Positions 10,133 to 37,044 of a stretch of 39,497 nt of DNA are shown piece after piece. Within the stretch, counting starts at the first letter, position 1, and every line of letters starts with the position of its first letter. The translations under genes and the position numbers were made by a program. Under the pieces are notes generated by a model. That model was not told the origin of the DNA and searched no databases. It was given only the letters and a program-made list of their open reading frames with translations. This DNA comes from Escherichia phage Pisces, in the sequence record MK903277.1; one strand, written 5' to 3'.

Positions 10133-10585
10133 GTGGCTGCATGGACACCAAAACGGGGGCACTCTGTGGGTGCCTACCGCTCTGGACTTGAGGCCAAGAA
10201 CCAGCAGTGGCTGGAACAGAACGGCGTCAAAGCGGAGTACGAAAGCCATTATATCAACTATGTGATTCCGGCTTCCGACCACAAGTACACACCAGACTTC
10301 ATCCTTCCGAATGGCATCATAGTCGAGACCAAAGGTATCTTCGACAGTGAGGACCGCAAGAAGCATATGCTGGTGCGCGAGCAACACCCTGAGCTGGACA
10401 TCCGGTTCGTGTTCTCGTCCTCCCGCTCCAAGCTGTACAAAGGGTCCCCGACCACGTATGGCGCATGGTGCGAAAAGAACGGCTTCAAGTTTGCCGACAA
10501 GTTTATCCCGGTTGAGTGGCTGAAAGAGGCGACTGTACGTCTGCCTTCCGGTATTCTCATCCCGAAGAAAGGAGCTAAGAAATGA
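10133..10585 (+). CDS. Endonuclease I, Holliday-junction resolvase (gene 3)
   Basis: GAYRSGLE, YVIPAS, YTPDF, PNGIIVETKG and REQHPELDIRFVFSSSRSKLYKGSPTTYG match T7 endonuclease I; apparent GTG start immediately after the gene 2.5 stop. Confidence 0.9.
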   Translation: MAAWTPKRGHSVGAYRSGLEAKNQQWLEQNGVKAEYESHYINYVIPASDHKYTPDFILPNGIIVETKGIFDSEDRKKHMLVREQHPELDIRFVFSSSRSKLYKGSPTTYGAWCEKNGFKFADKFIPVEWLKEATVRLPSGILIPKKGAKK

Positions 10586-10809
10586 CCTTTAAAGAAGTCC
10601 AGATTGTCCGCGAGCGTCTGACCATTGATAAAATCCCGGTGGGCTATGCGTTCATCGTTCATGGTCGCCCGGACGAAGTGTACGTGAAGATTAGCAACTC
10701 GCACGTCTTCAACCATAAGCGTCTCCAGATGCACACGACTGTCAGCGAGCGCTTCAAGCCTCACCTGAACCTCGTTATCGTCGAGCTGGTGGTGTACAAT
10801 GGTAAGTAA
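10582..10809 (+). CDS. Hypothetical protein (75 aa) between endonuclease I and amidase
   Basis: ATG overlaps the endonuclease stop (ATGA); genes 3 and 3.5 are adjacent in T7, so this is an insertion. Confidence 0.45.
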   Translation: MTFKEVQIVRERLTIDKIPVGYAFIVHGRPDEVYVKISNSHVFNHKRLQMHTTVSERFKPHLNLVIVELVVYNGK

Positions 10810-11257
10810 GGTACAGTTCAAACCGCGTACAGTCACTGACGCAATCTTCGTCCACTGTAGTGCGACCCAACCGTCTCAGGACATCGGGGTAGACACTATC
10901 CGCATGTGGCACAAGCAGCAGGGCTGGCTGGACGTAGGCTACCACTTCGTCATCAAACGCGATGGCACCGTGGAGTCTGGACGTCCGGTCGATGTAGTAG
11001 GGTCACACGTTAAGGATTGGAACTCCCGGTCCGTAGGCGTCTGCCTTGTAGGTGGAATCGACGCTAAGGGCAAGTTTGAAGCTAACTTCACTCCTGCTCA
11101 GATGAGCGCCCTACGCAACAAGCTGGCTGAACTGAAGGTCCTATACCCTCAGGCAGACATCAAGGCGCACCACGATGTAGCACCAAAGGCCTGTCCAAGT
11201 TTTGACTTGCAGCGCTGGCTGAACACTAACGAAATGGTCACTTCCGACCGAGGATAA
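10799..11257 (+). CDS. N-acetylmuramoyl-L-alanine amidase / T7 lysozyme (gene 3.5)
   Basis: 152 aa; VQFKPR..TDAIFVHCSAT, WLDVGYHF, VGVCLVGGID and HHDVAPKACPSFD match T7 lysozyme. Confidence 0.92.
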   Translation: MVSKVQFKPRTVTDAIFVHCSATQPSQDIGVDTIRMWHKQQGWLDVGYHFVIKRDGTVESGRPVDVVGSHVKDWNSRSVGVCLVGGIDAKGKFEANFTPAQMSALRNKLAELKVLYPQADIKAHHDVAPKACPSFDLQRWLNTNEMVTSDRG

Positions 11258-11275
11258 TAACAAAGGAGGCATTAT

Positions 11276-11467
11276 ATGTGCAACTTGGTAGAGCTTATCC
11301 GAGTTACCATGATTCAGAACGAGGTGCGCAACTATGCGTATCTTGACTTAATGCGGATACTTCAGGTCAGCAAGCCCGTGGTTAAGAAGCTGGTATTCGC
11401 GTGGATGTATCGGGCAACCGAGGAAAGGCTTCAATCAATCTTAAGAGGAGAAGACAACAATGATTAA
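11276..11467 (+). CDS. Hypothetical protein (63 aa)
   Basis: Strong SD AAAGGAGG upstream of ATG. Confidence 0.45.
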   Translation: MCNLVELIRVTMIQNEVRNYAYLDLMRILQVSKPVVKKLVFAWMYRATEERLQSILRGEDNND

Positions 11468-11672
11468 ATTTATCGAATTTCTGGGTCGTCTGGTTGTGCG
11501 TGGCTATTCTCGTGCTGCGAGTGTGGAACGAAAAGTCGCATCTGCTGCGGCTAAAGGTGCGGAAGCGGCTGCTGCGGAAGCGGATAGTCTGCGCATCAAG
11601 TCTCTGGACGCTGGCCTCCGTGCGCGTGGTCTGGACAAGAAGGCCGAGCAACTGAAAGGCTTCTTCAGCTAA
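11460..11672 (+). CDS. Hypothetical Ala-rich basic protein (70 aa)
   Basis: Start overlaps previous ORF; immediately upstream of a promoter. Confidence 0.4.
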   Translation: MIKFIEFLGRLVVRGYSRAASVERKVASAAAKGAEAAAAEADSLRIKSLDAGLRARGLDKKAEQLKGFFS

Positions 11673-11689
11673 ACTATCACCTTAGGGAT
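11670..11689 (+). promoter_or_regulatory. Phage RNAP promoter (phi4-like)
   Basis: TAAACTATCACCTTAGGGAT (two deviations from consensus). Confidence 0.55.
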
Positions 11690-11740
11690 GAGACCATGAG
11701 TCTTGTCCCTTTGTTCGCACTATTGATTAAGGAGTGACCA

Positions 11741-35996: not shown

Positions 35997-36038
35997 CAAC
36001 TTTGGGTCAAGGACGACCCGTTTAACAATGGAGGTATT

Positions 36039-36233
36039 ATGATTGAGTTCGACTTCAAGAATGAGGTCCTCAAAGCCTCGCCTATCGTCGGGACCGCTGC
36101 GGCTGATGGTGCCAGTCGGTTCTTCTTTGGGTTAACACTCAACGAATGGTTCTACGTCGCTGCTATCGCGTACACCGTGGTGCAGATTGGCGTCCTAATT
36201 TACAAGACGATTAAGAGCGGAGGTAAGACATGA
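36039..36233 (+). CDS. Holin (gene 17.5)
   Basis: 64 aa; PIVGT..AD...R.FFGL.LNEWFYVAAIAYTVVQIG nearly identical to T7 gp17.5. Confidence 0.9.
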   Translation: MIEFDFKNEVLKASPIVGTAAADGASRFFFGLTLNEWFYVAAIAYTVVQIGVLIYKTIKSGGKT

Positions 36234-36493
36234 CGCAGATGGACTTAGAGAAGTTCCTGTTAATGCTGGACACTGAACGTGCGCGACTCATGCTGCAAGA
36301 CCTGCGGGATGACTCTAAGCGTTCGCCCCAGCTCTACAACGCCATCGAGAAGCTGCTGGCCCGTCACAACTTTGTGTTAAGCAAGGTGTCGGTGGACGAG
36401 AAGCAGTTGGCAGACATGGAGGCGCTGAACAGAGAGTACGACAAGGTGCTCTCAGCGACCGAGGATAATGACACTGGGTATGGTGTCCAATAA
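36230..36493 (+). CDS. Terminase small subunit (gene 18)
   Basis: 87 aa; LDTERA..ML.DL.D..RSPQLYNAIEKLLARHNF parallels T7 gp18. Confidence 0.85.
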   Translation: MTQMDLEKFLLMLDTERARLMLQDLRDDSKRSPQLYNAIEKLLARHNFVLSKVSVDEKQLADMEALNREYDKVLSATEDNDTGYGVQ

Positions 36494-36496
36494 GTG

Positions 36497-36545
36497 TTAG
36501 ACTCAAGGTCATTACTATATGTAGTGGCCTTTATGATTAACACAC
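36497..36545 (+). promoter_or_regulatory. Putative RNase III processing hairpin (R18.5-like)
   Basis: TTAGACTCAAGGTCATTACTATATGTAGTGGCCTTTATGATTAA; same motif family as 6816, 13636 and 3278. Confidence 0.5.
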
Positions 36546-36594
36546 ACTACGAGCGGCGACGCTACGTGGATTCTGAGAAATGAGGAGGGCAACT

Positions 36595-37044
36595 ATGCTC
36601 GAACTTTTACGTAGATGCGCCCCTTGGCTGGTGGCAGGACTCATGTTCTGCTCAGGTTACTGGGTGGCAGACAATAAGTGGGAGGCGAAAGTAAGCAATG
36701 AGTACATCACGAAACTTGAGGCACGAGAGAATCAACGGGCTGCTGTCCAAGGTGAAATCGACAAAGTGTCAGCCGAGTGGCAAGACAAGATGTCCGCGCT
36801 GGAAGGCTCTACTGATAGGATTATTGCTGACCTTAACCGCGATAACAAGCGGCTGCGCATCCGTGTCAAACCCACCAGTGGAACAGTCCAGACTGACGGT
36901 CGATGCGTCATTGATGGTTACGCCGAACTTGACGAACGAGATGCTAAGCGTCTTATCGCCATCGGACTGAAAGGTGACGAATGGATTAAGGCCCTCCAGA
37001 AGACCGTGAGAGCCATGCAGCAAGAGAAGGAGGTGAAACCTTGA
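36595..37044 (+). CDS. Rz-like i-spanin (gene 18.5)
   Basis: Start ATG 36595 with SD GAGGAGGG; N-terminal TM helix [13 protein letters not shown]; [26 protein letters not shown] parallels T7 gp18.5. Confidence 0.85.
36698..36970 (+). CDS. Rz1-like o-spanin lipoprotein (gene 18.7), embedded in a different frame within the i-spanin gene
   Basis: MSTSR...[23 protein letters not shown] has a lipobox; C-terminal [15 protein letters not shown] matches T7 gp18.7 SLMVEPNLTTEMLNV. Confidence 0.85.
   Translation: MSTSRNLRHERINGLLSKVKSTKCQPSGKTRCPRWKALLIGLLLTLTAITSGCASVSNPPVEQSRLTVDASLMVTPNLTNEMLSVLSPSD

Follow-up and report, generated by a model that had tools for sequence, protein, structure and literature searches.

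The genome of Escherichia phage Pisces (sequence record MK903277.1; 39,497 nt, analysed over its whole length and called the window below) carries three conserved genes whose reading frames open with a codon other than ATG: gene 3 (endonuclease I), gene 7.3 (virion assembly, or host range and adsorption) and gene 19 (large terminase). The window holds the complete genome of a T7-like podophage, all of whose mapped genes lie on the plus strand, and its left end is the T7-type TCTCACAGT. Megablast assigned it to the genus Kayfunavirus (Autographiviridae, Studiervirinae), of which K1F is the type phage; the nearest records were those of IMM-002 (94-96%), of Dev2 and SH4 (~94% over the terminase region) and of K1F. 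When the genes of Dev2 were mapped to the window, they fell into the standard T7 order. The three genes and the elements that adjoin their starts are as follows.

10128..10130, plus strand: TAA stop codon of gene 2.5, encoding the single-stranded DNA-binding protein (SSB; reading frame 9435-10130), 2 nt 5′ of the gene 3 GTG
10133..10585, plus strand: gene 3 coding sequence, endonuclease I (Holliday-junction resolvase), 150 aa, GTG start at 10133-10135
18646..18651, plus strand: Shine-Dalgarno (SD) sequence AAGGAG of gene 7.3, 7 nt 5′ of the GTG; (A/T)AAGGAG in all 22 related loci
18659..18913, plus strand: gene 7.3 coding sequence, T7 virion-assembly or host-range and adsorption protein, 84 aa, GTG start at 18659-18661, overlapping the gene 7 stop TAA at 18664-18666
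37027..37036, plus strand: SD sequence AAGGAGGTGA of gene 19, ending 4 nt before the TTG and conserved in all Kayfunavirus relatives
37041..38804, plus strand: gene 19 coding sequence, large terminase, 587 aa; its TTG start (37041-37043) overlaps the TGA of gene 18.5 (Rz-like spanin) at 37042-37044

A sequence-only reading of the window had proposed that these genes start at GTG 10133, GTG 18659 and TTG 37041. All three codons were found at these positions, and each is the first NTG 3′ of its upstream in-frame stop. Their surroundings also agreed with that reading: the gene 3 GTG lies directly behind the SSB stop with a 2-nt gap, the gene 7.3 GTG follows its AAGGAG at a spacing of 7 nt, and the gene 19 TTG, behind a strong SD, overlaps the spanin stop in the form TTGA. 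Related loci of each gene were fetched from IMG/VR and their aligned start codons were compared. The homologous codon varied among valid starts, being GTG or ATG in gene 3, GTG or ATG in gene 7.3, and TTG, ATG or GTG in gene 19. Taken together, the comparisons support, with a probability of roughly 85%, the interpretation that the three codons are genuine near-cognate starts of an ordinary kind, inherited within the T7 family (Studiervirinae). In bacterial initiation, GUG and UUG in the ribosomal P site are decoded by fMet-tRNA, so all three proteins would begin with (f)Met.

The product of gene 7.3 matches the Pfam family VirionAssem_T7 and phrog_1320, annotated as 'host range and adsorption protein'. 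Its reading frame contains no Met codon, and no other NTG occurs in the stretch from the in-frame stop (18638) to position 18659. GTG was the start codon in 21 of the 22 related loci, while the remaining locus (L099) had ATG at the identical position. Across 23 sequences, the window included, which represent 14 distinct nucleotide versions, codons 2-13 contained eight variable sites, every one of them third-position and synonymous. Because all of the variation in these codons is synonymous, the peptide (M)GKSISKAFKKVV is under purifying selection from directly after the GTG. Since this selection begins immediately after the GTG, and since the open frame holds no other NTG, we consider the GTG start of gene 7.3 to be effectively proven by comparison.

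For gene 3, the first in-frame ATG is codon 78, and the product matched the Pfam family Phage_endo_I over residues 1-149 of 149 (E = 1e-80) and was 63% identical to T7 gp3 in an alignment that ran from residue 1 through to the end. Among 19 Kayfunavirus sequences, the window included, the aligned start codon was GTG in 13 and ATG in 6; it is also ATG in T7, where the N-terminal length is equal, and in T3 and K1F. The 'MA-x-W/Y' pattern was kept in the ATG-starting homologs. The junction between genes 2.5 and 3 occurred in relatives as TAAtcGTG, TAATG and TAGTG, with the start codon kept in each form, and the codons that follow the start preserved the frame, with synonymous and conservative changes among relatives. 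Gene 3 lacks an SD at usable spacing, the nearest SD-like sequence being GGTGA (10113-10117), 15 nt off.

The gene 19 product matches the T7 terminase domain and phrog_38 and is 65% identical to T7 gp19. The GGAGG core of its SD lies 7 nt 5′ of the TTG, and the TTG together with the SD was invariant in all of the Kayfunavirus loci compared (10 of 10), as well as in K1F and Dev2. ATG was present at the aligned position, or no more than one codon away, in further homologs (L138, L139, L115, L116 and L118), whereas the start codon is GTG in T7 and T3; in the curated T7 record this GTG is preceded by TAAGGAGG. Between the TTG and a downstream ATG at 37074 the frame was kept among relatives, with synonymous changes that comprised TTA/CTA, GCG/GCA, CTT/CTA and a three-base CGT/AGA exchange. 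Replacements in the codons behind the start were conservative, and in gene 19, as in gene 3, these codons show purifying selection.

Two broader statements of the sequence-only reading were upheld in part. The first, that no in-frame ATG gives a full-length product, holds for gene 3, given its first ATG at codon 78, and for gene 7.3, which has no Met, and is true of gene 19 only narrowly, as ATG 37074 lies just 11 codons downstream of the TTG. The second, that protein-level similarity to T7 begins at the start codon, was borne out for gene 3, in which the alignment begins at residue 1, and failed for the other two: BLAST aligned only the C-terminal half of the gene 7.3 product, and the gene 19 alignment ran from residue 8.

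Several observations weigh against the three assignments. In gene 19, codons 2-11 are only moderately constrained, and over codons 2-13 the numbers of variable sites at the first, second and third codon positions were 6, 3 and 6. The records of K1F, SH4 and IMM-002 begin the terminase at the ATG equivalent to 37074, while those of Dev2, GW1 and phage B1 begin endonuclease I at an internal GTG and that of SH4 begins it at an internal ATG. A second, shorter isoform of endonuclease I could also be made from the GTG at 10166, given that the GGGGG located 8 nt 5′ of it is a plausible SD-like element. Furthermore, literature searches found no N-terminal peptide, proteomic or ribosome profiling evidence for Kayfunavirus starts, and a T7 expression paper contained no information on start-site usage. 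The two downstream codons in question are the following.

10166..10168, plus strand: alternative internal GTG, codon 12 of gene 3, with GGGGG 8 nt upstream; the start in the Dev2, GW1 and phage B1 records
37074..37076, plus strand: alternative downstream ATG, codon 12 of gene 19, with no SD upstream; the start in the K1F, SH4 and IMM-002 records

One explanation that would accommodate these codons is dual initiation, in which 10133 and 10166 are both used in gene 3, and 37041 and 37074 in gene 19, to give long and short isoforms in the manner of T7 gene 4A/4B. In-frame internal starts have precedent in the family, in T7 4A/4B and in genes 0.3, 4 and 5 of T3, and the GGGGG upstream of 10166 and the conservation of gene 19 Met12 within the genus are both consistent with it. 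However, the internal sites are not conserved as starts outside the genus, T7 and other relatives having Val or Ile at the position of Met12, and 37074 has no SD. We regard dual initiation as unlikely.

It is also improbable that the true starts lie only downstream, at ATG 37074 in gene 19 and at GTG 10166 or the codon-78 ATG in gene 3, which would make the non-ATG calls mere over-extensions of open reading frames (ORFs). The records that begin at these codons and the GGGGG 5′ of 10166 speak for this possibility, but the statement in the SH4 paper that the phages 'use only ATG' (PMC4925675) is an outcome of annotation and not evidence. There is no SD before 37074, as against a near-perfect one before the TTG, and the terminases of T7, T3 and other relatives begin where the TTG aligns or no more than one codon away. 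The codon matching 10166 is not conserved as a start, since this internal Val codon is GTT in T7 and GTA in L019 and L023 and the codon is ATA in L025, none of them an NTG, while the Pfam profile and T7 gp3 both align with the gene 3 product from residue 1. In T7 endonuclease I a basic N-terminal peptide of 16 residues is required for sliding along DNA and for normal junction cleavage, and matters for DNA binding and diffusion (PMC9547003). A start at 10166 would remove most of this peptide, and the ATG-initiated product would be a 72-aa stub without half of the nuclease fold. For gene 7.3 the explanation is inapplicable, because there is no alternative ATG. Finally, a sequencing error or recent deleterious mutation that turned ATG into GTG or TTG in this genome alone, for which only the prior that single-base errors occur can be adduced, has next to no probability and is refuted by codon conservation across genomes, as identical codons recur in K1F and Dev2 and in 10 to 21 relatives that were assembled independently, from isolates and from metagenomes.

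Several public records annotate these genes wrongly, and the start-site calls made here for the three genes are better backed by comparative data than several of those in GenBank. Endonuclease I is full-length in the K1F record, whereas in that of SH4 it is the 72-aa stub from the internal ATG; the IMM-002 record leaves genes 3 and 7.3 unannotated and has spurious antisense ORFs in their place, such as one named 'acyl carrier protein'. The terminase is full-length, from the TTG, in Dev2, and is 11 residues short in K1F, SH4 and IMM-002. The 'endonuclease' profile phrog_27028, with 72 positions, matched only residues 79-150 of the gene 3 product (window 10367-10582; E = 5e-52) and looks like the product of truncated gene calls limited to ATG, not like a real domain family. 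The main practical consequence is such mis-annotation of these genes, which ATG-only or automatic gene calling has produced. Correct starts matter for protein expression, for instance of endonuclease I, which has a functional N-terminal peptide, and for the engineering or refactoring of phage genomes; the biological weight of the finding is small, GTG and TTG starts being routine.

The frequency of non-ATG starts in the window is in line with this. Three of ~48 genes (6%) have such a start, all other mapped genes beginning with ATG, and this count is not above chance. Further ORFs with a GTG or TTG start (3312, 8721, 9162, 13423, 15842, 20527 and 25888) were rejected, each having a well-placed ATG and SD that align with the starts of relatives. 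In the T7 record, 6 of the 57 coding sequences tabulated start with GTG (2.8, 6.3, 7.7, 17.5, 19 and 19.2), and non-ATG starts number 4 of 51 tabulated in the T3 record, the gene 19 GTG included. Among E. coli genes, ~14% start with GTG and ~3% with TTG, or ~17% with a non-ATG codon (bioRxiv 10.1101/063800), and a recent Kayfunavirus paper gives 3.8% GTG and 3.8% TTG starts (PMC12785254). The non-ATG starts had been presented as if they departed from T7, and this does not hold: gene 19 of T7 and of T3 itself starts with GTG, T7 gene 2.8 starts with GTG right behind the gp2.5 stop, and the 2.5/3 stop/start junction is widespread in the family.

We also considered how translation of the three genes may relate to that of the genes upstream. 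The upstream stop and the start stand as TAAtcGTG at the 2.5/3 junction, as GTGGGTAA with an 8-nt overlap at 7/7.3, and as TTGA at 18.5/19. A repeat search identified a family of phage RNA polymerase (RNAP) promoters of 20 nt, with the consensus CTAAACTATCACTATAGGGA and 12 copies that define the transcription units. The copies, and those that serve the three gene pairs, are as follows.

3260, 6795, 8470, 9386, 11669, 13614, 17672, 20492, 21457, 25905, 33192 and 38900: positions of the 12 phage-RNAP promoter copies found by the repeat search
9386..9405, plus strand: phage-RNAP promoter for genes 2.5 and 3; next copy at 11669
17672..17691, plus strand: phage-RNAP promoter for genes 6.5, 6.7, 7 and 7.3; next copy at 20492
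33192..33211, plus strand: phage-RNAP promoter for genes 17, 17.5, 18, 18.5 and 19; next copy at 38900

In this repeat search no phage promoter was found between the genes of any of the three pairs (2.5/3, 7/7.3 and 18.5/19), each of the three non-ATG genes shares a transcript with the gene before it, and the overlaps leave no space for a terminator between paired genes. A scan for sigma-70 promoters and terminators around gene 19 returned chance-level matches only. A promoter motif guessed from the region upstream of the DNA polymerase gene was dropped, as it had a single match only. RNA folding of 90-nt windows at the three starts revealed no significant structure. Relative to shuffled controls the windows had less structure (z = +0.9 to +1.45), which is what open start sites would be expected to show; a structured coupling element at the starts, which had been entertained, was dropped on the strength of the same folding windows.

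From the stop/start geometry and the shared transcription units we infer that all three sites would fit translational coupling. For gene 3, termination-reinitiation is the most plausible route because it has no usable SD and its start lies 2 nt behind the gene 2.5 stop; on this layout, gene 3 is most likely translated by ribosomes that reinitiate after gene 2.5. Reinitiation behind the very highly expressed gene 2.5 would set gene 3 output at a small, fixed fraction of SSB output, and a low, fixed output of endonuclease I would suit a toxic nuclease that is needed in small amounts. Genes 7.3 and 19 could initiate independently because they have strong SDs at ideal spacing; ribosomes that end gene 7 or gene 18.5 could re-initiate there, given the overlaps, and free 30S subunits could load as well. 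Initiation at near-cognate codons is less efficient than at AUG. Reporter measurements in E. coli put GUG and UUG at 10-100% of AUG (10.1101/063800). The three codons may therefore be less efficient starts than ATG, and adaptive tuning of expression through coupling, as suggested in the sequence-only reading, would be a conceivable role for them.

The SD-less stop/start junction between SSB and endonuclease I, as TAATG or TAAtcNTG, is kept from enteric to marine T7-like phages (window 10128-10135; L297 at 9586; L191 at 9259; L020 and L041; marine L033-L081). It is present in T3, in K1F and in many metagenomic T7-like contigs, and one distant contig (L041) independently has TAAtcTTG at this position. 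A weak 6-bp hairpin can also be drawn at 10118-10136 of the window, where the last gp2.5 codons (CUACGA) pair with UCGUGG, which holds the gene 3 GUG, and the UAA lies in the loop; it was not statistically significant and did not occur in the relatives with TAATG. Ribosomes completing gene 2.5 would open such a hairpin.

In a broader comparison, we surveyed terminase starts across 80 loci (L106-L185), with 79 scorable DNA polymerase loci (L217-L296) alongside, taking as the start the codon with the best SD within the aligned N-terminal region and grouping SD-using phages into clusters by 90% single-linkage protein identity. Besides Kayfunavirus, T7 (L189) and T3 (L297), non-ATG terminase starts were found in at least four other SD-using lineages, as GTG in L120, L124, L130 and L183 and as TTG in L134/L137 and L141; the GTG of L120 stands against ATG in its close relatives L119 and L121. 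A non-ATG start was present in 6 of 13 SD-using terminase clusters, a small sample scored by a crude rule with phylogeny uncontrolled. For DNA polymerase, 77 of the 79 loci had ATG and two had GTG, one of them an evident mis-call, giving at most 2 of 18 clusters in a set of phages that differs from the terminase set. These counts hint that the terminase start codon may be unusually labile or kept weak, perhaps under a pressure for weak initiation that is specific to this gene. A more speculative proposal, which we put forward only tentatively and hold to be less probable than its negation, is that a weak terminase start has been recurrently selected in T7-like phages rather than reached by neutral drift, and likewise that the SD-less 2.5/3 junction is a conserved means of setting endonuclease I output at a small fraction of that of SSB. 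If true, a recurrent weak terminase start would point to dosage control of the terminase relative to procapsids.

Other elements were noted elsewhere in the genome. Across the end of the capsid gene, whose stop is at 22620-22622, the -1 reading frame stays open over 110 codons (22556-22885), and a T7-type shift motif, G GTT TTC, lies near 22598-22604, five codons before the capsid stop; this arrangement suggests a frameshift product of the capsid 10A/10B type. The Dev2 'gp10.1', annotated with a TTG start, is part of this -1 frame region. A repeated hairpin-like element of 52 nt, with copies that are 83% identical, is located at 6814-6865 and 36497-36548, and a similar sequence is found at ~13632-13680. 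These elements are located a short way downstream of promoters or ahead of gene 18.5, the copy at 36497-36548 being at the position of the T3 RNase III site R18.5, and by the match of their positions to T3/T7 sites such as R18.5 they are probably RNase III processing hairpins. At the left end, tandem 13-nt repeats CCTCAAGTCATCA occupy 202-281, with three good copies and degenerate ones, where T7-like genomes carry repeats beside the terminal repeat.

Comparison with known systems places the three starts among familiar arrangements. They are of the same kind as general bacterial GUG/UUG initiation, which involves an NTG codon, SD-dependent initiation and an N-terminal Met (10.1101/063800), and their frequency in the window, 6%, is lower than in E. 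coli. An SD 5-9 nt 5′ of the start is present in genes 7.3 and 19 and not in gene 3. The non-ATG starts seen here are a normal trait of the T7 family, already on record in T7, T3, K1F and Dev2, and are not new. In K1F the annotated start of gene 7.3 is GTG, as here, and in Dev2 the annotated starts of gp7.3 (GTG) and gp19 (TTG) are likewise the same; both phages share with the window the AAGGAG SD core, the overlap with the upstream gene and the identical first 13 residues of 7.3. In contrast, K1F gene 19 is annotated from the downstream ATG, even though K1F has both the TTG and its SD.

Gene 19 of T7 and T3 resembles that of the window in having an annotated non-ATG start behind a strong SD (TAAGGAGGcaatGTG in T7 and TAAGGAGGcaacGTG in T3) and in standing downstream of 18.5 as the last large gene in the late operon. 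The start is GTG in those phages, whereas here it is a TTG that overlaps the 18.5 stop as TTGA, and T7 has a 21-nt gap between 18.5 and gene 19 where the window has an overlap. The 2.5/3 junction of T3 and K1F, a classic layout for translational coupling, is similar to that of the window in that the start of gene 3 is placed at the SSB stop and no SD stands at a suitable spacing, but it is formed by an overlapping ATG (TAATG), whereas here, also in comparison with K1F gene 3 taken by itself, a 2-nt spacer and GTG are found (TAAtcGTG). T7 differs from all of these, since a homing-endonuclease gene, 2.8, is inserted at the junction with its GTG start right behind the stop of 2.5, and an SD of its own, GGGAGG, serves gene 3.

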